Shown here one piece after another: positions 11,692 through 35,843 of a stretch of DNA of 64,000 nucleotides. How positions within the stretch are numbered: position 1 is the stretch's first letter; every line of letters starts with the position of its first letter. The notes below the pieces were generated by a model. The model saw only the letters and a program-made list of their open reading frames with translations. It searched no databases and had not been told where the DNA came from. A program made the translations under genes and the position numbers. The stretch is from the NCBI RefSeq assembly GCF_003334405.1, contig NZ_QOWM01000001.1. The stretch is one strand, 5' to 3'. The DNA is from Escherichia coli. Lineage in GTDB: Bacteria; Pseudomonadota; Gammaproteobacteria; Enterobacterales; Enterobacteriaceae.

Positions 11692-12785
11692 TAACGTCCC
11701 TCAAAATCAATACGCGGATCAACCAGCGTATAGCTGATATCACTGACAATATTCAGCAGCAGGCCAATCAGGGTGAAAATATACAAGGTACCAAACATTA
11801 CAGGATAATCGCGCGAGACGGTCGCTTCGTAGCCCAGTAAGCCCAGACCATTGAGTGAAAACATCACCTCAATCAGCAGCGAGCCGGTAAAAAACATGCT
11901 GATAAACGTCGCCGGAAAACCGGCAATCACCAGCAGCATGGCGTTGCGGAACACATGTTTCCAGAGAATATTTTTTTCACTTACCCCTTTCGCACGCGCG
12001 GTCACCACGTATTGCTTGCGCACTTCATCAAGGAATGAGTTTTTTGTCAGCATGGTCAGCGCCGCAAAGCCACCAATCACTGTCGCCAGCACCGGCAGCG
12101 TGATATGCCACAGATAATCGGTGATTTTCTGATACCACGGCAGCGAATCAAAGTTAGCGGAAACCAGGCCGCGTAGAGGGAACAGGTCGAAATAGCTGCC
12201 GCCCGCGAAGAAGACAATCAGCAGGATGGCAAACAAAAAGGCCGGAATGGCGTAGCCGATGATGATAAATGCGCTACTCCAGACGTCAAAGCGGCTCCCA
12301 TTATAAACAGCTTTGCGAATGCCTAACGGAATCGACACCAGATAGATAATCAGCGTGCTCCACAATCCGAGGGTGATGGAAACCGGCAGACTGTCTTTAA
12401 TCAGCGTCAGCACCGAGGCGCTGCGAAACAGGCTATCGCCAAAATCAAAGCGGATGTAGTCCCAGAGCATTTTGAAGTAACGTTCGTGGATCGGCTTATC
12501 AAAACCGTAGCGATGAGTGATCTCAGCGATCACTTCTGGATCTAATCCGCGTCCGCCACGGTAATTACTGTCGCTGATATTGCCGACACCCGTTTGCGCA
12601 TGGCTGGCACGAACACCTTCACCGCCTGCGCCGGGTAATACTCCGGCATTACCAAACTCAATGGCGGCGATGGCCTGGTCGACCGGACCGCCAGGCGCAA
12701 TTTGCACGATGAAAAAGTTGATGGTGATAATCGCCCATAATGTTGGGATCACCAGCAACAGACGGCGAATCAGGTAAGCGCCCAT
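11691..12785 (-). CDS. yejB: ABC transporter permease YejB
   Basis: 364-aa membrane protein; 1-nt overlap with yejE. Confidence 0.92.
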
Positions 12786-27245: not shown

Positions 27246-27402
27246 TAAAAGGTGTGTTACAGGGCAGAAATTTCCTGTCCTGTAACATTTGATGAGCGCA
27301 AAGAGAATGACCGGTTTGTGAATGTAATTTTATGAATTTAAATGGTTTTATCTTTCAGTAGAAACTTCAAACGTTCATCAAACACTCAGGTTATTTCCTC
27401 AA

Positions 27403-27429
27403 GGGCAGATTATTTTCTGCCCTTTTTTA
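27403..27429 (+). terminator. Rho-independent terminator downstream of fruBKA
   Basis: Stem gggcaga / tctgccc followed by tttttt. Confidence 0.7.
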
Positions 27430-27667
27430 TTGTTCTGTTCTGTGCATCCCGTCACAAATTCCTCGCTTTTGTAATTCAGGCATTTAATCGCATTTTGTGA
27501 GCCTGCTCAAATCTGCCCATTTTGCCTCTCTGGCGGTAATTTACTTTACGTAAAACATGCATACTATGAGCACATGTTTAAATATGAACACATGTTTAAA
27601 CCGTCTTTGCAGTATCTATATTCTTGTGGATTGACAGGGTTGGTAATTTTTTACCAGAGGACGTGCT

Positions 27668-28609
27668 ATGCGCGAAAAGGATTATGTCGTAATTATAGGT
27701 TCGGCGAATATTGATGTCGCCGGATATTCACATGAATCATTAAATTATGCGGATTCAAATCCAGGTAAAATAAAATTTACGCCTGGTGGAGTAGGGCGCA
27801 ATATTGCACAAAACCTGGCGTTGCTGGGTAACAAAGCCTGGCTACTGAGCGCCGTAGGCAGTGATTTTTATGGTCAATCGCTGCTAACGCAAACCAATCA
27901 ATCTGGCGTTTATGTCGATAAATGCCTGATTGTGCCGGGAGAAAATACGTCGAGTTATTTATCATTACTCGATAATACCGGTGAAATGCTGGTTGCTATA
28001 AATGACATGAATATTAGCAACGCTATTACAGCTGAATATCTCGCACAGCACGGTGAATTTATTCAGAGGGCAAAGGTCATTGTCGCGGACTGTAATATCA
28101 GTGAAGAGGCACTGGCATGGATTCTGGATAATGCCGCCAACGTACCCGTATTTGTCGATCCGGTTTCGGCATGGAAATGTGTCAAAGTGCGCGACCGTCT
28201 AAATCAGATCCACACTCTCAAGCCAAACCGCCTTGAAGCGGAAACCCTGAGTGGGATTGCGCTGTCAGGGCGTGAAGATGTGGCAAAAGTTGCTGCCTGG
28301 TTCCATCAACATGGCCTGAACCGACTGGTATTGAGCATGGGCGGCGACGGCGTTTATTACAGCGATATCAGCGGTGAAAGTGGCTGGTCTGCGCCGATCA
28401 AAACCAATGTTATTAATGTTACCGGAGCGGGCGATGCCATGATGGCGGGACTTGCTTCGTGTTGGGTAGACGGAATGCCGTTTGCCGAATCTGTTCGTTT
28501 CGCACAGGGATGTTCGTCAATGGCGCTCTCCTGTGAATACACCAATAACCCCGATTTATCGATTGCCAACGTTATATCGTTAGTGGAGAACGCAGAATGT
28601 CTGAATTAA
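27668..28609 (+). CDS. psuK: Pseudouridine kinase (PfkB family)
   Basis: 313-aa ORF with GG dipeptide and GAGD motifs. Confidence 0.92.
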   Translation: MREKDYVVIIGSANIDVAGYSHESLNYADSNPGKIKFTPGGVGRNIAQNLALLGNKAWLLSAVGSDFYGQSLLTQTNQSGVYVDKCLIVPGENTSSYLSLLDNTGEMLVAINDMNISNAITAEYLAQHGEFIQRAKVIVADCNISEEALAWILDNAANVPVFVDPVSAWKCVKVRDRLNQIHTLKPNRLEAETLSGIALSGREDVAKVAAWFHQHGLNRLVLSMGGDGVYYSDISGESGWSAPIKTNVINVTGAGDAMMAGLASCWVDGMPFAESVRFAQGCSSMALSCEYTNNPDLSIANVISLVENAECLN

Positions 28610-29535
28610 AAATTTCCCCTGAATTATTACAAATTTCCCCGGAAGTGCAGGACGCTTTAAAAAACAAAAAACCGGTTGTGGCGCTGGAATCGACCATTAT
28701 TTCTCACGGGATGCCGTTCCCACAAAATGCCCAGACCGCAATTGAAGTTGAAGAAACTATTCGTAAACAGGGCGCTGTACCTGCCACGATCGCCATTATT
28801 GGCGGCGTGATGAAAGTGGGGTTAAGCAAAGAAGAAATTGAATTACTGGGTCGTGAAGGGCATAACGTGACCAAAGTTAGTCGTCGCGATTTACCTTTTG
28901 TTGTTGCCGCCGGAAAAAATGGCGCAACCACTGTGGCTTCAACGATGATTATTGCGGCGCTTGCCGGAATTAAAGTATTTGCCACCGGGGGAATTGGTGG
29001 TGTGCATCGCGGGGCGGAACATACCTTCGATATTTCTGCCGATTTGCAAGAACTGGCAAATACTAATGTCACCGTTGTTTGTGCCGGGGCGAAATCTATT
29101 CTCGATTTAGGATTAACCACTGAGTATTTAGAAACCTTCGGTGTGCCGTTAATTGGCTATCAGACTAAAGCGCTGCCTGCGTTTTTCTGCCGCACCAGCC
29201 CGTTTGACGTCAGCATTCGTCTCGACAGCGCCAGCGAAATTGCCCGTGCAATGGCGGTGAAATGGCAAAGCGGTCTGAACGGTGGCCTCGTGGTAGCGAA
29301 CCCGATCCCGGAACAGTTTGCTATGCCGGAACACACTATCAATGCGGCGATCGATCAGGCGGTAGCTGAAGCTGAAGCTCAGGGAGTCATTGGTAAAGAA
29401 AGTACGCCATTCCTGCTGGCGCGCGTTGCTGAACTGACCGGCGGTGACAGCCTGAAATCCAACATCCAGCTGGTGTTCAACAACGCCATTCTGGCGAGCG
29501 AAATTGCCAAAGAATATCAGCGTCTCGCGGGTTAA
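28597..29535 (+). CDS. psuG: Pseudouridine-5'-phosphate glycosidase
   Basis: 312-aa ORF; 13-bp overlap with psuK. Confidence 0.92.
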   Translation: MSELKISPELLQISPEVQDALKNKKPVVALESTIISHGMPFPQNAQTAIEVEETIRKQGAVPATIAIIGGVMKVGLSKEEIELLGREGHNVTKVSRRDLPFVVAAGKNGATTVASTMIIAALAGIKVFATGGIGGVHRGAEHTFDISADLQELANTNVTVVCAGAKSILDLGLTTEYLETFGVPLIGYQTKALPAFFCRTSPFDVSIRLDSASEIARAMAVKWQSGLNGGLVVANPIPEQFAMPEHTINAAIDQAVAEAEAQGVIGKESTPFLLARVAELTGGDSLKSNIQLVFNNAILASEIAKEYQRLAG

Positions 29536-29628
29536 TTTCTGACGGGCAGAAAGCCGTCGCCCGTACTCATCAAGCATACCAAAACCTGGCGCTGACGCCG
29601 GGTTTACCGGCATGAAGGGAAAATCATT

Positions 29629-30879
29629 ATGGATATAATGAGAAGTGTTGTGGGGATGGTGGTGTTACTGGCAATAGCATTTCTGTTGTCAGTGAATAAA
29701 AAGAGCATCAGTTTGCGCACGGTTGGAGCCGCACTGCTGCTGCAAATCGCTATTGGTGGCATCATGCTCTACTTCCCACCGGGAAAATGGGCAGTAGAAC
29801 AGGCGGCATTAGGCGTTCATAAAGTGATGTCTTACAGTGATGCCGGTAGCGCCTTCATTTTTGGTTCGCTGGTTGGGCCGAAAATGGATGTCCTGTTTGA
29901 CGGTGCGGGTTTTATCTTCGCCTTTCGCGTACTTCCGGCGATTATTTTCGTTACTGCGCTCATCAGTCTGCTGTACTACATTGGCGTGATGGGGCTGCTG
30001 ATTCGCATCCTTGGCAGCATTTTCCAGAAAGCCCTCAACATCAGCAAAATCGAATCTTTTGTTGCGGTTACTACTATTTTCCTCGGGCAAAATGAGATCC
30101 CGGCGATCGTTAAACCGTTTATCGATCGCATGAATCGCAACGAGTTGTTTACCGCAATTTGTAGCGGGATGGCGTCCATTGCTGGTTCGATGATGATTGG
30201 TTATGCCGGAATGGGCGTACCAATTGACTACCTGTTAGCGGCATCGCTGATGGCGATCCCTGGCGGGATTTTGTTTGCACGTATTCTTAGCCCGGCAACC
30301 GAGCCTTCGCAGGTCACATTTGAAAATCTGTCGTTCAGCGAAACGCCGCCAAAAAGCTTTATCGAAGCGGCGGCGAGCGGTGCGATGACCGGGCTAAAAA
30401 TCGCCGCTGGTGTGGCGACGGTGGTAATGGCGTTTGTCGCAATTATTGCGCTGATCAACGGCATTATCGGCGGAATTGGCGGCTGGTTTGGTTTCGCCAA
30501 TGCCTCTCTGGAAAGTATTTTTGGCTATGTGCTGGCACCGCTGGCGTGGATCATGGGTGTGGACTGGAGTGATGCCAATCTTGCGGGTAGCCTGATTGGG
30601 CAGAAACTGGCGATTAACGAATTCGTCGCTTACCTGAGTTTCTCCCCATACCTGCAAACGGGCGGCACGCTGGAAGTGAAAACCATTGCGATTATCTCCT
30701 TTGCGCTTTGTGGTTTTGCTAACTTTGGTTCTATCGGTGTTGTCGTTGGCGCATTTTCGGCTATTTCGCCAAAACGCGCGCCGGAAATCGCCCAGCTTGG
30801 TTTACGGGCGCTGGCAGCAGCAACGCTTTCCAACCTGATGAGTGCGACTATTGCCGGGTTCTTTATTGGTCTGGCGTAA
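29629..30879 (+). CDS. psuT: Putative pseudouridine/nucleoside transporter, concentrative nucleoside transporter (CNT) family
   Basis: 416-aa membrane protein; paralogue of nupX at 32819. Confidence 0.92.
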   Translation: MDIMRSVVGMVVLLAIAFLLSVNKKSISLRTVGAALLLQIAIGGIMLYFPPGKWAVEQAALGVHKVMSYSDAGSAFIFGSLVGPKMDVLFDGAGFIFAFRVLPAIIFVTALISLLYYIGVMGLLIRILGSIFQKALNISKIESFVAVTTIFLGQNEIPAIVKPFIDRMNRNELFTAICSGMASIAGSMMIGYAGMGVPIDYLLAASLMAIPGGILFARILSPATEPSQVTFENLSFSETPPKSFIEAAASGAMTGLKIAAGVATVVMAFVAIIALINGIIGGIGGWFGFANASLESIFGYVLAPLAWIMGVDWSDANLAGSLIGQKLAINEFVAYLSFSPYLQTGGTLEVKTIAIISFALCGFANFGSIGVVVGAFSAISPKRAPEIAQLGLRALAAATLSNLMSATIAGFFIGLA

Positions 30880-30889
30880 TGCTCGATTT

Positions 30890-30926
30890 GTAGACCGGAT
30901 AAAACGTATTAAGCGTTGCATCCGGC
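30890..30926. repeat. REP-like palindromic element between convergent psuT and yeiL
   Basis: gtagaccggataaaacgtattaagcgttgcatccggc, with REP-type gccggatg ... ccggtctac arms. Confidence 0.6.
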
Positions 30927-30949
30927 AATCGCGCTATTGAAAATAATTT

Positions 30950-31609
30950 TTACTGCATCATCCCGGAGAATTTATTCTCCGGGTCCATCTCCAGCGCCAG
31001 TCCTGACAACTGCTTTCTGTTTTTAATGAGATACCCTTTCTTGCTTTTAATTAATAAACCGTCGTGAATGAACTGCGCGAGAACATATAAAAGATGTCGA
31101 TAAGAAACGCCTAAATACTCTGCCGCTTGCGTATGCTTTTCGTGATAAAGATCACCTTCCTGCGAGAGTAATATAAATGCTGCCAGGCGATTCACTAACG
31201 GAAATGATTGATTCTGAGTTAAAGAAACAATATTACGATAATTTTTATGACTTAAGGTGACGCAGAGTTTTCGTAAAAATAGCGTGTCGTTTAATAACAG
31301 CGGACGGTAATGTTTCATAGGGAGCGCAAGGCACCAACACTCTTCAATAGCCTGCACCGCACGCGGTTCATGGTCTTTATCGATTAACTCAATCTCGCCA
31401 ATAAAACAGGGGGCGGCAAAGAAATCGATCAGCGACACGCGACCATTAGCTAGCGTGGCGTAAAGCCTGGCGCGGCCTCGCGTCAGGTAAAACAGCCAGG
31501 ACGGCTGTTGCCCTTCCTGCACAATGTAGTCACGCGCTAAAAAATGAAACAGCCGCGTATCGGCTGAAACATCCGTTAAAAAGCAATCCTTAAACGCGGA
31601 TTCACTCAT
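30950..31609 (-). CDS. yeiL: CRP/FNR-family transcriptional regulator YeiL
   Basis: About 219 aa from MSESAFKD; cNMP-binding-like fold with a C-terminal HTH; the ORF track is 13 codons longer. Confidence 0.88.
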
Positions 31610-31777
31610 CAATTGCTGCTTAAGATCATTATTGTGGATTTCTTTCACGATGTTTATCCGCTATGAGATTTCTCATATTTAGCATACGTACGCTGTTGTT
31701 AAGATTCAATCATCGGCCCGGTCGAATTTTCTTTGCTGTAGAAAAAATAACGCAACTGGAAACAGAGGAAATAAACA

Positions 31778-32719
31778 ATGGAAAAGAGAAAAATTATTCT
31801 GGATTGTGATCCGGGTCATGATGATGCTATTGCTATAATGATGGCGGCGAAACATCCGGCAATAGATTTATTAGGCATCACTATTGTAGCGGGTAATCAG
31901 ACGCTTGATAAAACATTAATTAATGGCCTGAATGTTTGCCAGAAACTGGAGATTAATGTTCCGGTTTATGCGGGGATGCCGCAGCCCATTATGCGTCAAC
32001 AAATCGTTGCCGATAATATTCACGGTGAAACCGGACTGGATGGCCCGGTATTCGAGCCGCTGACCCGCCAGGCAGAAAGCACTCATGCGGTGAAATATAT
32101 CATTGATACCCTGATGGCAAGCGATGGCGATATCACTCTGGTGCCGGTTGGTCCGCTTTCAAATATCGCGGTGGCAATGCGTATGCAACCCGCGATCCTG
32201 CCCAAAATCCGTGAAATTGTGCTAATGGGCGGCGCTTACGGTACAGGCAACTTCACGCCATCTGCCGAGTTCAACATCTTTGCCGACCCGGAAGCCGCAC
32301 GCGTAGTGTTCACCTCCGGCGTTCCATTAGTGATGATGGGCCTCGATCTCACCAACCAGACCGTTTGCACCCCGGACGTGATTGCTCGGATGGAAAGGGC
32401 AGGCGGCCCCGCCGGAGAGCTGTTCAGCGACATCATGAACTTCACTCTCAAAACGCAGTTCGAAAACTACGGCCTTGCTGGCGGCCCGGTGCACGACGCC
32501 ACCTGCATCGGTTATCTGATTAACCCTGATGGCATTAAAACCCAGGAGATGTACGTCGAAGTGGACGTCAACAGTGGCCCTTGCTATGGGCGTACCGTCT
32601 GCGACGAGCTGGGCGTTCTTGGCAAGCCCGCCAATACCAAAGTCGGCATCACTATTGATACAGACTGGTTCTGGGGATTAGTCGAAGAGTGCGTGCGCGG
32701 CTACATCAAAACCCATTAA
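31778..32719 (+). CDS. rihB: Pyrimidine-specific ribonucleoside hydrolase
   Basis: 313-aa ORF with the N-terminal DCDPGHDDA nucleoside hydrolase signature. Confidence 0.93.
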
Positions 32720-32818
32720 GTGTTGATAACAAGCCGGGCCGGTATCGCAAGATGCAGGCCTGGCTATTTCTGATGGGCAGAAAGCCGTCGCCCAATATGA
32801 CATGAAGAGATAATCACT

Positions 32819-34138
32819 ATGGATGTCATGAGAAGTGTTCTGGGAATGGTGGTATTGCTGACGATTGCGTTTTTACTGTCAGTAAACAAGAAGAAGATCA
32901 GCCTGCGTACCGTTGGCGCGGCGTTAGTGTTACAGGTCGTGATTGGCGGCATTATGCTTTGGTTACCGCCAGGGCGTTGGGTCGCTGAAAAAGTCGCTTT
33001 TGGCGTGCATAAAGTGATGGCGTACAGCGACGCGGGTAGCGCATTTATCTTCGGTTCTCTGGTCGGACCGAAAATGGATACCTTATTTGATGGTGCAGGA
33101 TTTATCTTTGGTTTCAGGGTGTTACCGGCAATTATCTTCGTCACCGCGCTGGTGAGTATTCTCTACTACATCGGTGTGATGGGGATTTTAATTCGAATTC
33201 TCGGCGGTATCTTCCAGAAAGCATTAAATATCAGCAAGATCGAGTCATTCGTCGCGGTCACCACCATTTTCCTCGGGCAAAACGAAATTCCGGCAATCGT
33301 CAAACCCTTTATCGATCGTCTGAATCGCAATGAATTATTTACAGCGATTTGTAGTGGCATGGCCTCGATTGCTGGTTCGACAATGATTGGTTACGCCGCA
33401 CTGGGCGTGCCTGTGGAATATCTGCTGGCGGCATCATTAATGGCGATCCCTGGCGGGATCTTGTTTGCCCGCCTGTTAAGCCCGGCAACGGAATCTTCGC
33501 AGGTTTCCTTTAATAACCTCTCTTTCACCGAAACACCGCCAAAAAGCATTATTGAAGCCGCTGCGACAGGGGCAATGACCGGGCTGAAAATCGCCGCAGG
33601 TGTGGCAACAGTGGTGATGGCATTTGTTGCAATAATTGCGTTGATTAACGGTATTATCGGCGGCGTTGGTGGCTGGTTTGGTTTTGAACATGCCTCGCTG
33701 GAGTCCATTTTAGGTTACCTGCTGGCTCCACTGGCGTGGGTGATGGGTGTGGACTGGAGTGATGCGAATCTTGCCGGGAGTTTGATTGGACAGAAACTGG
33801 CAATAAATGAATTTGTCGCTTATCTCAATTTCTCACCCTATCTGCAAACGGCTGGCACTCTCGATGCTAAAACTGTGGCGATTATTTCCTTCGCGTTGTG
33901 CGGTTTCGCTAACTTTGGTTCTATCGGGGTGGTGGTGGGGGCGTTTTCTGCGGTTGCGCCACACCGTGCGCCGGAAATCGCCCAGCTTGGTTTACGGGCG
34001 CTGTCGCGGAAACTGTATCCTTCAAGAAAGCTATATACCAGGCCCGCCATAAAACCATCGTCAGCACCAAAACTGTCTACTGTCGTATGCGCTGGCGCGG
34101 TCAGCAAAAATTGTTCTCCATCCTTTTCGCTGCAATAA
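32819..34138 (+). CDS. nupX: CNT-family nucleoside transporter NupX with an aberrant 3' end (last ~21 expected codons replaced by 44 unrelated codons); possibly a pseudogene
   Basis: Colinear with paralogue PsuT to residue 395 (...PEIAQLGLRAL), then diverges; the 3' extension is antisense to yeiI coding sequence. Confidence 0.8.
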   Translation: MDVMRSVLGMVVLLTIAFLLSVNKKKISLRTVGAALVLQVVIGGIMLWLPPGRWVAEKVAFGVHKVMAYSDAGSAFIFGSLVGPKMDTLFDGAGFIFGFRVLPAIIFVTALVSILYYIGVMGILIRILGGIFQKALNISKIESFVAVTTIFLGQNEIPAIVKPFIDRLNRNELFTAICSGMASIAGSTMIGYAALGVPVEYLLAASLMAIPGGILFARLLSPATESSQVSFNNLSFTETPPKSIIEAAATGAMTGLKIAAGVATVVMAFVAIIALINGIIGGVGGWFGFEHASLESILGYLLAPLAWVMGVDWSDANLAGSLIGQKLAINEFVAYLNFSPYLQTAGTLDAKTVAIISFALCGFANFGSIGVVVGAFSAVAPHRAPEIAQLGLRALSRKLYPSRKLYTRPAIKPSSAPKLSTVVCAGAVSKNCSPSFSLQ

Positions 34139-34983
34139 ACTGACTCATCGGGCAAATAAACAAACAGTTGCTGAACACCTTGCTGATGCAATGCATTCAC
34201 TGCGGTATTACGGTCAGCATCGCTGGTGATCGCCTGTCCCCATAAAATTTCCAGCTCCGGTAAAGTGGGTTTCAGGGTGTGAATATGCGCCAGCCAGTGT
34301 TTGATTTTGCCCGCTTTGAATTCTGAAACGGTATCGACAAACACCGGGATTTCATCAGCGAGGGTAAAGACCCATTCCAGCGCCTCGGCTGTCAGGTTGC
34401 AATCAGCCAGTACCACGCCCGCATGACGAAGTAAATCGCGCGACCCGTTCAGTAGTTGCGGTGTCAACTGTTCCAGCAGATGGGTATCGTTAATCGCCAG
34501 CACGGTTTGATCGTCTCGATTGGCAATTGCCAGATACGTCGATGTGCTTTGACCATGCAAACGAACGCAGCCGGAGACATTCACGCCGGCACGGCGCGTT
34601 TCTTCCAGGAGCATTTCGCCATAAAAGTCATCGCCAATCACTGAAAGCAAATGGACGTCACGGCCTAACAGCGCCAGATTGTGGGCGATGTTGCGTCCCA
34701 CGCCGCCCGCTGAGCAATGAATTGTACCGGGATGAGAAGCCGATTGCGGGTAACGGATATCCGCCATCCCGCGAATATCCATATTGATTGTCCCCACCAC
34801 TACGCAGTATTCCTGCTCGGTGAGAATGTAACCTTTGCCTTTAATCCGGCCTTTGCGCATTAAATCCATAATATGCGCCGCAACGCGCGAACGGCTGATT
34901 TGCAGCATGTCCGCAATTTCGTTCTGCTGAATCAGCGGGTTACGCCGTAAAATTGCAAGGATCTCCTTTTCCCGGTTATTCAT
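33838..34983 (-). CDS. yeiI: HTH plus PfkB-family sugar kinase YeiI with an aberrant 3' end; possibly a pseudogene
   Basis: N-terminal HTH and PfkB kinase core up to ...FGADDGFMAGLVYSFLEGYSFRDSA; the final ~52 codons are antisense to nupX and lack the conserved PfkB C-terminal segment. Confidence 0.8.
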   Translation of the reverse strand: MNNREKEILAILRRNPLIQQNEIADMLQISRSRVAAHIMDLMRKGRIKGKGYILTEQEYCVVVGTINMDIRGMADIRYPQSASHPGTIHCSAGGVGRNIAHNLALLGRDVHLLSVIGDDFYGEMLLEETRRAGVNVSGCVRLHGQSTSTYLAIANRDDQTVLAINDTHLLEQLTPQLLNGSRDLLRHAGVVLADCNLTAEALEWVFTLADEIPVFVDTVSEFKAGKIKHWLAHIHTLKPTLPELEILWGQAITSDADRNTAVNALHQQGVQQLFVYLPDESVYCSEKDGEQFLLTAPAHTTVDSFGADDGFMAGLVYSFLEGYSFRDSARKPSWAISGARCGATAENAPTTTPIEPKLAKPHNAKEIIATVLASRVPAVCR

Positions 34984-34985
34984 CT

Positions 34986-35843
34986 TCAGGCTACCGCTTT
35001 TTCAGTTTGTTGCGCTTTCAGCCAGGCGATCTCTTCTGCCCAGATATCCGGGTTGATGGTTTCGAGGATCAGCGGAATGCCGTCGAAACGGTCGTCCTGC
35101 ATGATCCAGCGGAACGCATCATGACCGATATTGCCTTCACCGAGGCTATGATGGCGGTCAACGCGGCTGCCAAAGGTGCTTTTCGCATCGTTAAGGTGCA
35201 TCCCGCGCAGATACTTAAAGCCGACAGTACGGGCAAAATGCGCGAATGTTTTCTCGCATTCGGCTGGAGTACGCAAATCATACCCGGCAGCGAAAGCATG
35301 GCAGGTATCAATGCAGACGCCGACGCGGGATTTATCTTCCACGCCGTCGATAATCGCCGCGAGATGTTCGAATTTAAACCCTAAGTTACTGCCCTGACCG
35401 GCGGTGTTTTCTATCACCGCTGTCACACCTTGAGTTTTATCCAGCGCAATGTTGATGGATTCGGCAATACGCGCAAGGCAATCCTCTTCTGAAATCTGCA
35501 TCAGATGGCTGCCAGGGTGGAAGTTGAGCAAAGAAAGCCCCAGCTGTTCGCAACGCTGCATTTCATCTATAAAGGCATCGCGCGATTTTTCCAGAGCTTC
35601 AGTGACCGGATGTCCGAGGTTAATCAGATAACTGTCGTGGGGAAGAATTTGCGCCGATGTGTAGTGATATTTTTCACAGGCGGCTTTGAATTCATCGATG
35701 GTTTGCGTCGTGAGCGGTGCGGCACGCCACTGACGTTGGTTTTTGGTGAACAAGGCAAACGCGGTTGCGTCGATTTCGGCGGCGCGAATTGCGGCATTTG
35801 CCAGACCGCCAGCAGCACTAACGTGCGCTCCAATGTATTTCAT
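34986..35843 (-). CDS. nfo: Endonuclease IV (AP endonuclease)
   Basis: 285-aa ORF; xylose isomerase-like TIM-barrel AP endonuclease. Confidence 0.95.

Follow-up and report, generated by a model that had tools for sequence, protein, structure and literature searches.

What is the role of the apparent second kinase gene next to the pseudouridine operon of Escherichia coli? This gene, yeiI, has no assigned function in E. coli K-12. It encodes a protein with a helix-turn-helix (HTH) domain and a PfkB-type kinase domain and lies near psuK, psuG, and psuT (psuKGT), whose products are a pseudouridine kinase, a pseudouridine-5'-phosphate glycosidase, and a transporter of the CNT family. It was analyzed in a 64,000-nucleotide stretch of E. 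coli DNA (contig NZ_QOWM01000001.1 of assembly GCF_003334405.1; hereafter, the window), in which yeiI and the neighboring nupX are both truncated. The initial annotation of this stretch had placed yeiI with rihB and nupX in a second nucleoside salvage module. Its gene neighborhoods, its sequence motifs, and the distribution of a palindrome at psuK promoters make it fairly probable that YeiI is a kinase-derived pseudouridine sensor that regulates psuKGT, a role with a defined operator and ligand. YeiI appears in the literature as a predicted transcription factor (PMC6055005) and, in 2022 (PMC9061257) and 2025 (PMC12506659), as an uncharacterized protein, in agreement with the initial annotation, which had left it without a function. 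A literature search found no published proposal of YeiI as a regulator of psuKGT and nothing relevant on an HTH-pseudouridine kinase or a psu repressor; the specific, testable function suggested here for yeiI and the defined cis-element are new.

Genomic partners and motifs of YeiI

Genomes were scanned at one per species through an alignment of the HTH region, which gave 323 species; 80 loci were kept and annotated by script, and 9 further loci were added from the neighborhoods of YeiI homologues, bringing the sample to about 90 species. Wherever flanking sequence sufficed among the 80 species loci, the gene for the HTH-PfkB protein adjoins psuG, as it does in the 9 further loci. In 38 species of Enterobacteriaceae, the gene order is yeiH> nfo> yeiI> <CNT <psuG <psuK, with yeiI convergent to psuKGT. 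This set includes Escherichia, Citrobacter, Enterobacter, the Klebsiella oxytoca group, Kluyvera, Buttiauxella, Leclercia, Kosakonia, Phytobacter, Pseudocitrobacter, Entomohabitans, and Affinibrenneria. The flanking genes are different, and nfo is missing, in Affinibrenneria and a Salmonella island; yeiI nevertheless adjoins psuKGT in both.

Outside Enterobacteriaceae, the HTH-PfkB gene heads an HTH-psuK/psuG(/CNT) operon with no second kinase. Such fused operons are found in Yersinia, Serratia, Hafnia, Photorhabdus, Xenorhabdus, Morganella, Gilliamella, Pasteurella, Shewanella, Aliivibrio, Ferrimonas, and Chromobacterium, as well as in one metagenome-assembled genome each of Burkholderiaceae and Fusobacteriaceae. 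The fusions of Yersinia, Serratia, Photorhabdus, Morganella, Pasteurella, Shewanella, Aliivibrio, and Chromobacterium, uncharacterized proteins annotated as "PfkB family carbohydrate kinase" or "pseudouridine kinase," have the same two domains as YeiI (with 65 to 79% identity in the HTH domain) and share with its system the same palindromic box before the psu operon, the psuG linkage, and, usually, the CNT gene. They differ from it in that the fusion is the first operon gene and sole kinase with canonical motifs, whereas YeiI is encoded separately and convergently and has altered motifs.

The yeiL-rihB-nupX cassette is found between yeiI and psuT in just 7 of the 38 species, namely, E. coli, two Escherichia sp., E. 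whittamii, one strain of Citrobacter amalonaticus, Phytobacter diazotrophicus, and Entomohabitans; it is absent in E. albertii. As judged from these neighborhoods, the conserved partner of yeiI is the pseudouridine operon and not rihB-nupX, and this is the firmest part of the argument. The grouping of yeiI with rihB and nupX is not supported across the family, as yeiI stands beside psuKGT in 38 of 38 species. Synteny and the box evidence described below together assign yeiI to psuKGT.

Within E. coli, yeiI is covered to at least 80% in 5,421 of 5,426 complete genomes. It comes as two deeply divergent full-length alleles: about 3,360 genomes have at least 95% identity to the K-12 type, and 2,060 (among them Nissle and JJ1886) carry an allele at ~81% nucleotide identity. 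This divergence is far above normal within a species and suggests an old recombination import. In strain IH5, yeiI is truncated beside a remnant of the insertion sequence (IS) IS1 and relocated next to tldD. Escherichia sp. MOD1-EC7003 has a partial psuG (residues 42 to 312) between yeiL and fruA, with psuT and psuK not detected; the psu operon of this lineage may have degraded while the cassette and yeiI remain.

YeiI of the window matches the Pfam domains HTH_24 at residues 1 to 48 (full model, E = 2.5e-10) and PfkB at residues 58 to 335 (E = 1.2e-62), which bears out the HTH-PfkB architecture given in the initial annotation; HTH_24 is also precomputed for YeiI homologues. The HTH domain of YeiI is 69 to 79% identical to those of the proteins in which HTH-PsuK is the sole kinase. 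Residues S30, R31, S32, V34, A35, H37, I38, M39, and L41 are invariant or nearly so and form a putative recognition helix. The kinase domain is 43 to 53% identical to those of the same proteins, compared with 48 to 62% for PsuK of the same genomes.

In the kinase domain, the N-terminal di-glycine motif (GGxGxN) is present as an invariant GGVGRNIA. Both phosphoryl-transfer motifs are changed. In the NXXE region, which reads KPTLPELE in the window, none of the 38 YeiI orthologues has the Asn; Thr, Ala, or Ser stands in its place. At the GXGD site, the catalytic Asp is retained (D309) and the second Gly of the anion hole is replaced by Asp. In an alignment of the species loci, the motif state splits perfectly by the presence or absence of a separate psuK. 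HTH-PfkB proteins that coexist with PsuK, i.e., YeiI, have lost the Asn (KPT, KMA, KPS, or KTT..E) and have D[SRGP][FV]GAD[DE] at the second site. HTH-PfkB proteins that are the sole kinase have KPNxxEAE and N/S-x-x-G[AS]GD (GAGD in all except Chromobacterium, which has GSGD), and PsuK has KPNxxEAE and NVTGAGD. The altered GADD is identical in all intact YeiI proteins except that of Affinibrenneria (GADE), and this near-identity argues for selection rather than random decay.

The nucleoside pocket is retained. In the structures of EcPsuK, Asn14 and Asp16 contact the ribose, Ser30 contacts the pseudouridine-specific N1, and Asn143 and Lys170 contact the base; Ser/Thr30, Asn143, and Lys170 are hallmarks of the pseudouridine kinase (PUKI) family, and the Ser30 contact triggers closure of the PsuK dimer, a change in quaternary structure (PMC9061257). 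YeiI keeps the equivalents of PsuK Asn14, Asp16, Ser30, Tyr97, Asn112, Asn143, Lys170, and Asp256, the exception in the pocket being Met114, which is replaced by Thr. The residues that align with Ser30, Asn143, and Lys170 are S83, N196, and K223, all of them invariant or nearly so. Residue 84, directly after the Ser that corresponds to the N1 contact (window positions 34735 to 34737, motif S-H-P-G), is His in the window and in strain S1-INA-02-A, as well as in an Escherichia sp., Enterobacter sichuanensis, a Citrobacter sp., and Leclercia; it is Asn (SNPG) in the E. coli species representative, in most orthologues, and in PsuK.

Among solved structures, that of EcPsuK (YeiC; PDB entry 7vkp and related ones) is the nearest to the YeiI kinase domain (E = 1.3e-66), and none covers an HTH-PfkB protein. 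The two share the PfkB fold, the Ser/Asn/Lys hallmarks, the ribose contacts, and the catalytic Asp. Unlike EcPsuK, YeiI has HTH_24, TxxE, GADD, and the Met114-to-Thr replacement, and it scores 230.1 bits against the NCBIfam model PRK09850, under the cut-off of 540. A psuK mutant is unable to use pseudouridine (PMC12506659, citing Preumont 2008), so YeiI does not replace PsuK as a kinase in vivo. Machine-learning tools mis-call YeiI as a second pseudouridine kinase (PMC12506659).

The psu box and the psuK promoter

Alignment of psuK upstream regions uncovered a palindrome, (GC)AAACAnnTGTTT(GC), referred to here as the psu box. The pattern AAACANNTGTTT was searched for over the 80 loci (1.21 Mb), in which the regions upstream of psuK or HTH-psuK account for 24 kb, or 2% of the DNA. 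All 22 exact boxes fall within these 24 kb. Sites with no more than one mismatch number 184, of which 107 fall there as well, and 73 of the 80 loci have at least one such site at the psuK or HTH-psuK promoter. The positions are fixed: relative to the psuK ATG, Enterobacteriaceae have the boxes about 100 and 82 nt upstream, and the fused lineages have them about 45 and 27 nt before the start, with an additional distal site near 290 nt; the tandem boxes are spaced by 18 bp. Three further distant lineages have the box 3 to 31 nt before the start codon and, together with Shewanella, widen the consensus to GCAAACAnnTGTTTGC. The box has a repressor-like position in several of the fused lineages, where it overlaps the region of ribosome binding.

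No psu boxes were found upstream of nfo, yeiI, rihB, yeiL, or yeiH. When sites within coding sequence and in the unannotated flank beyond yeiH are disregarded, those of the Enterobacteriaceae loci are all upstream of psuK. The similar sites in yeiH and yejB are inside coding sequence and were taken as chance matches; one of these, in yejB (window positions 11949 to 11960), is a 12-mer identical to box 2. With one mismatch allowed, 6 sites occur in the window, compared with 3.0 expected. The core of the box resembles the KdgR-type motif AAACA-N-TGTTT; KdgR was set aside as the probable binding protein, as the spacing of its motif is one base shorter.

In the window, box 1 (GAGCACATGTTT) and box 2 (GAACACATGTTT) lie between psuK and the fruBKA terminator (Table 1). 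As this terminator is located upstream, psuK needs a promoter of its own. The terminator stem-loop is common to Enterobacter and "E." lignolyticus and is not found in the Salmonella island or Affinibrenneria. A candidate psuK promoter can be read just before box 1, and transcription from it would start inside that box. Further upstream is a candidate CRP-like site, TGTGAgcctgcTCAAA, at which the block TGTGAttctgtTCA is conserved in four Enterobacteriaceae. A consensus promoter scan returned one site, no more than in shuffled sequences, and this site differs from the promoter read by eye; as the scan is not decisive on the psuK start, the sign of regulation proposed below is tentative.

A recurrent A-to-C single-nucleotide polymorphism (SNP) has been described in the psuK/fruA intergenic region at the old K-12 coordinate 2257444 (PMC7518454, PMC9509342, PMC10340439, PMC7858067). 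It recurs in most mouse-gut lines, including those of a resident strain, and in long-term stationary-phase cultures and has been reported to alter psuK expression. Its placement in the window is constrained by the mutated base, which must be a plus-strand A. With an offset of 1978 between K-12 reference versions, the SNP would correspond to window position 27542 (NC_000913.3 position ~2259422; position 9423 of locus L094). It would replace the third T in TTTACT, yielding TTGACT, a promoter-up change, and this placement supports the psuK promoter assignment.

Proposed role of YeiI and competing explanations

The following scenario would account for these observations most economically. An ancestral bifunctional HTH-PsuK would have served as both a kinase and an autoregulator and would have been duplicated in Enterobacteriaceae. 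One copy, PsuK, would have lost the HTH and kept catalysis with the canonical active site; the other, YeiI, would have kept the winged helix and the pseudouridine pocket while both of its phosphoryl-transfer motifs changed. The YeiI dimer would bind the tandem palindromes at the psuK promoter, and pseudouridine-induced closure of the PsuK-type dimer, through the Ser30 equivalent, might reposition the two HTH domains. The likeliest outcome would be release of the operator, i.e., a repressor relieved by pseudouridine. YeiI is probably a repressor, but its sign and the loss of kinase activity are less certain than its role as a regulator. We infer binding to the box, pseudouridine as the ligand, and lost or reduced kinase activity from the sites, residues, and motifs described above. 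The full version, in which YeiI is a pseudokinase-type sensor with a disabled phosphoryl-transfer site whose pocket and dimer closure drive the winged helix on and off the psuKGT operators, is more tentative, with a chance somewhat short of even.

Enzyme-derived or enzyme-fused regulators include the ROK repressors NagC and Mlc, related to ROK glucokinases, as well as BirA, NadR, and PutA. The logic proposed for YeiI would be the same, an enzyme fold being reused as the ligand sensor of a DNA-binding protein; as may be the case for YeiI and PsuK, the regulator and enzyme paralogues of the ROK family divide the roles. The fold is different, PfkB/ribokinase in YeiI versus ROK/ASKHA in NagC and Mlc, and neither the solved structures nor the literature searches yielded a comparable regulator based on PfkB.

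Several points speak against a regulatory role. The literature search returned no experimental link of YeiI to DNA binding, pseudouridine, or psuK expression. Both psu boxes of E. coli are imperfect, with one and two mismatches, and the psu box could be bound by another protein. If the promoter from the consensus scan were the right one, the boxes would sit in activator-like positions, the psuK start assumed here being a predicted one. The main texts of the evolution papers report no loss-of-function alleles of yeiI, psuK expression rising through one promoter SNP. Since yeiI knockouts would be an easier route, either the repressor version is weakened or the promoter is intrinsically weak. Finally, with D309, the di-glycine motif, and a strictly conserved GADD, YeiI could be an active kinase with an unusual site. 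This last point is also the basis for viewing YeiI as bifunctional, i.e., as a transcription regulator that is still an active (slow or differently regulated) kinase of pseudouridine or uracil nucleosides, as the canonical fusions probably are. The ancestral fusions combine canonical catalytic motifs, the HTH, and the box, and YeiI has kept a complete nucleoside pocket, with its GADD under purifying selection. However, no YeiI retains the Asn of NXXE or the third residue of GAGD, and these changes are confined to species with a separate PsuK; evolution has been faster in the kinase domain than in the HTH; and pseudouridine use fails in the psuK mutant (PMC12506659), all of which makes retained activity of this kind unlikely.

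The module that the initial annotation had proposed, in which rihB, nupX, and yeiI salvage a different, possibly modified nucleoside with YeiI as an active kinase and yeiL as a shared regulator, is quite unlikely. These genes are indeed adjacent in E. coli, YeiI retains the catalytic Asp and the ribose- and base-contacting residues, and RihB and NupX are modest on uridine and cytidine, with a role on modified nucleosides having been suggested (PMC10526354, PMC11241209, PMC2898832). However, 31 of the 38 Enterobacteriaceae species have yeiI without rihB, nupX, or yeiL and always beside psuKGT, and in E. coli, where nupX is missing in ~18% of the genomes, yeiI is almost always kept. Further, yeiI is on the opposite strand, just behind nfo, and is not transcribed with rihB-nupX; both phosphoryl-transfer motifs carry substitutions in every species examined; and a nucleoside hydrolase and a kinase would be alternative routes that compete for one substrate instead of acting in sequence. 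It is very unlikely that the palindrome is bound by some other transcription factor and that YeiI is a redundant, slowly degenerating paralogue located beside psuKGT by shared ancestry. Binding of the box by YeiI is indeed a prediction, the core of the box resembles the KdgR-type motif, and the E. coli boxes deviate from the consensus. However, the box co-occurs with HTH-PfkB across Gamma- and Betaproteobacteria in unrelated contexts, and the recognition residues of the HTH are nearly invariant. Nor does yeiI behave like a decaying gene, being intact in 5,421 of the 5,426 complete genomes of E. coli and in each of the 38 species and having an altered motif that does not vary. Least probable of all is a partnership with nfo, for example, in sensing or phosphorylating damaged nucleosides. 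Only 2 nt separate nfo from yeiI in the window, and the pair is conserved at this spacing in those Enterobacteriaceae loci that have chromosomal synteny; yeiI is therefore probably co-transcribed with nfo, the gene for the oxidative-stress-inducible endonuclease IV. However, the nfo link is lost in the Salmonella island and Affinibrenneria and absent in all fused HTH-PsuK lineages, whereas the psuG link is universal, and nfo has no psu box upstream.

The truncated locus and the rihB-nupX cassette

The gene content of the locus is ordinary and previously annotated in E. coli. Its ~9-kb region is 99.9% identical to that of E. coli S1-INA-02-A and has the same gene order as K-12. A Shigella origin was considered in view of the gene decay and set aside, as the window has no visible IS elements and shows full synteny with K-12. 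The gene identities given in the initial annotation are upheld by curated family models. PsuK scores 713.8 bits against the NCBIfam pseudouridine kinase equivalog PRK09850 (cut-off of 540), RihB scores 727.3 bits against its NCBIfam equivalog (cut-off of 459), and YeiL scores 418.7 bits against NF007707 (cut-off of 180) over its full length; PsuG belongs to the Pfam family Indigoidine_A (E = 3e-132). Residues 9 to 16 of RihB, DCDPGHDD, fit the N-terminal DXDXXXDD Ca2+/ribose motif of CU-type nucleoside hydrolases. PsuT and NupX both match TIGR00804 (the NupC model), the match of NupX being confined to profile positions 1 to 385 of 401 and thus less than full length; the match of YeiI to NF007416 is likewise confined to positions 1 to 339 of 362. 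RihB and YeiL of the window are full-length members of characterized or named families, whereas NupX lacks its last 22 residues. The gene for yeiH lies on the minus strand beyond nfo.

Table 1. Coordinates of genes and sites of the psuK-nfo region in the window
Feature	Position	Strand	Comment
fruBKA intrinsic terminator	27401-27424	+	Stem-loop followed by a T-run
CRP-like site TGTGAgcctgcTCAAA (TGTGA-N6-TCAAA), candidate	27496-27511	+	Read from sequence
Candidate psuK promoter	27540-27567	+	-35 TTTACT at 27540-27545, 16-nt spacer, -10 TACTAT at 27562-27567; read from sequence
psu box 1, GAGCACATGTTT	27568-27579	+	2 mismatches to AAACAnnTGTTT; 18 bp upstream of box 2
psu box 2, GAACACATGTTT	27586-27597	+	1 mismatch; candidate operator for the YeiI winged helix
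psuK, pseudouridine kinase	27668-28609	+	Intact; no HTH; canonical NXXE and GAGD
psuG, pseudouridine-5'-phosphate glycosidase	28597-29535	+	Intact
psuT, CNT-family transporter	29629-30879	+	Ortholog of the sole CNT gene of other Enterobacteriaceae
yeiL, CRP/FNR-family regulator	30950-31648	-	Member of the inserted cassette
Invariant palindrome TATGAGATTTCTCATA	31662-31677		yeiL-rihB divergent promoter region
rihB, pyrimidine (uridine/cytidine) nucleoside hydrolase	31778-32719	+	Intact; DCDPGHDD motif; PMC10526354
nupX-derived ORF, 439 aa	32819-34138	+	Native part 32819-34003, codons 1-394 of 416; remainder antisense to yeiI
yeiI-derived ORF, 381 aa	33838-34983	-	Native part 33994-34983, codons 1-330 of 362; remainder antisense to nupX
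Deletion junction	33994-34003		One remaining copy of the 10-bp direct repeat ACGGGCGCTG
nfo (endonuclease IV)	34986-35843	-	2 nt upstream of yeiI (gap 34984-34985)

The initial annotation had described psuKGT and the rihB-nupX-yeiI set as two paralogous modules, which is true of two of the three pairs. PsuT and NupX are 88% identical over 416 aa, and PsuK and the YeiI kinase domain are 39% identical (E = 6e-76). PsuG, with its Indigoidine_A fold, and RihB, a nucleoside hydrolase, have unrelated folds and are not homologous. The lone CNT protein of Enterobacter, lignolyticus, and Salmonella is 92 to 93% identical to PsuT, compared with 84 to 87% to NupX, so that PsuT, and not NupX, is the orthologue of the single CNT protein of other Enterobacteriaceae; nupX is an old duplicate of psuT. 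The single CNT protein encoded beside yeiI in Citrobacter amalonaticus AUH_CA_2023_1 is PsuT-like in residues 1 to 247 and closer to NupX in residues 225 to 416. It may be a psuT/nupX recombination chimera that arose with the deletion of rihB and yeiL, which would be one route of cassette loss.

The locus comprises two units, divided otherwise than in the initial annotation: an ancestral and conserved one consisting of psuK-psuG-psuT and the convergent yeiI and, in some lineages, a second one consisting of yeiL and rihB-nupX, a weak uridine/cytidine uptake-and-hydrolysis pair with its own regulator and palindrome. RihB hydrolyses uridine and cytidine with Km values of 142 and 532 μM, respectively (PMC10526354), and NupX carries both of these nucleosides with low efficiency, while PsuT carries neither (PMC11241209), so that the description of the substrate as undefined in the initial annotation was outdated. 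Action of RihA and RihB on modified nucleosides was suggested as a possibility in 2010 (PMC2898832). The rihB gene has been reported as silent, yet it is induced by autoinducer-2 conditioned medium (PMC2898832). YeiL was proposed to act in post-exponential nitrogen starvation, as related in PMC3590769, which cites Anjum 2000.

The yeiL-rihB intergenic region (129 bp, 31649-31777) shows 88% identity across Escherichia, Citrobacter, Phytobacter, and Entomohabitans, a higher level of conservation than in the coding DNA (~80%). Within it, the palindrome TATGAGATTTCTCATA does not vary; it has the FNR-like geometry ATGAG-N4-CTCAT (5-N4-5) and is a candidate YeiL operator. The cassette looks like a self-contained unit with its own regulator. 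RihB is 92 to 94% identical across genera at the protein level, which had pointed to recent horizontal transfer of the cassette. Such transfer was rejected, as the nucleotide identity of rihB and nupX, 77 to 81%, is that of the flanking genes; this match makes the cassette look old and repeatedly lost.

Among the 5,426 complete E. coli genomes, rihB is covered to at least 80% in 5,400. By contrast, nupX is absent from ~18%: in 974 genomes, plus 15 borderline ones, it is matched by its psuT paralogue alone. ST131 is among the E. coli without nupX, and in Nissle it is reduced to a 66-nt remnant between rihB and yeiI (positions 8833 to 8898 of locus L092). In strain 2017-19-1CC (NZ_AP027854.1), rihB is split by IS1. 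Several E. coli genomes have a region of ~10.0 kb, compared with 9.28 kb in the intact reference and 9.0 kb in the window, which indicates an insertion of roughly 0.7 to 0.8 kb; yeiI is not among the feature names displayed for them.

The decay of nupX and yeiI noted in the initial annotation is real and goes back to a single event, a deletion that clips the 3' ends of both. A segment of 281 bp present in S1-INA-02-A (about positions 8505 to 8785 of its locus) is absent from the window. In the reference, it is flanked by two copies of ACGGGCGCTG, and the single copy that remains in the window marks the event as a deletion by slippage or microhomology. The lost segment comprised the last 22 codons of nupX, the intergenic region, which looks REP-like (similar to repetitive extragenic palindromes), and the last 32 codons of the convergent yeiI. 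As a result, the two ORFs now overlap on opposite strands, each continuing into the antisense of the other: NupX retains residues 1 to 394 of 416 followed by a foreign tail of 45 aa, and YeiI retains residues 1 to 330 of 362 followed by one of 51 aa. A 50-nt probe across the junction had 0 matches in the 5,426 complete E. coli genomes. As ~18% of these genomes have no nupX, this gene is dispensable and has also been lost independently of the deletion in the window. In E. coli, loss of nupX is commonplace and damage to yeiI is rare.

The source strain of the window carries a natural truncation of yeiI, a kind of damage seldom met in E. coli. Were YeiI a repressor, deregulation of psuKGT would be expected in this strain, and if the pseudokinase-sensor version is true, the 281-bp deletion would be a natural regulator knockout that deregulates pseudouridine catabolism. 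Adapting E. coli populations, both in the mouse gut and in long-term stationary phase, acquire psuK promoter mutations with a repeatability matched by few other targets (PMC9509342, PMC7518454, PMC7858067), and identification of the psuK regulator would explain what the adaptive SNP bypasses. Pseudouridine production strains have been built by deleting psuK and psuT, and such engineering has so far ignored the regulation of the psu operon (PMC12500856).

If the proposed role is correct, YeiI would be the first described transcription regulator with the PfkB fold, a fold not known as the sensor of a transcription factor. It would have originated from the split of an ancestral bifunctional HTH-PsuK, an enzyme-regulator fusion, into a pure enzyme and a pure sensor, and the operon under its control would be one for which increased expression is selected time and again in the mammalian gut.

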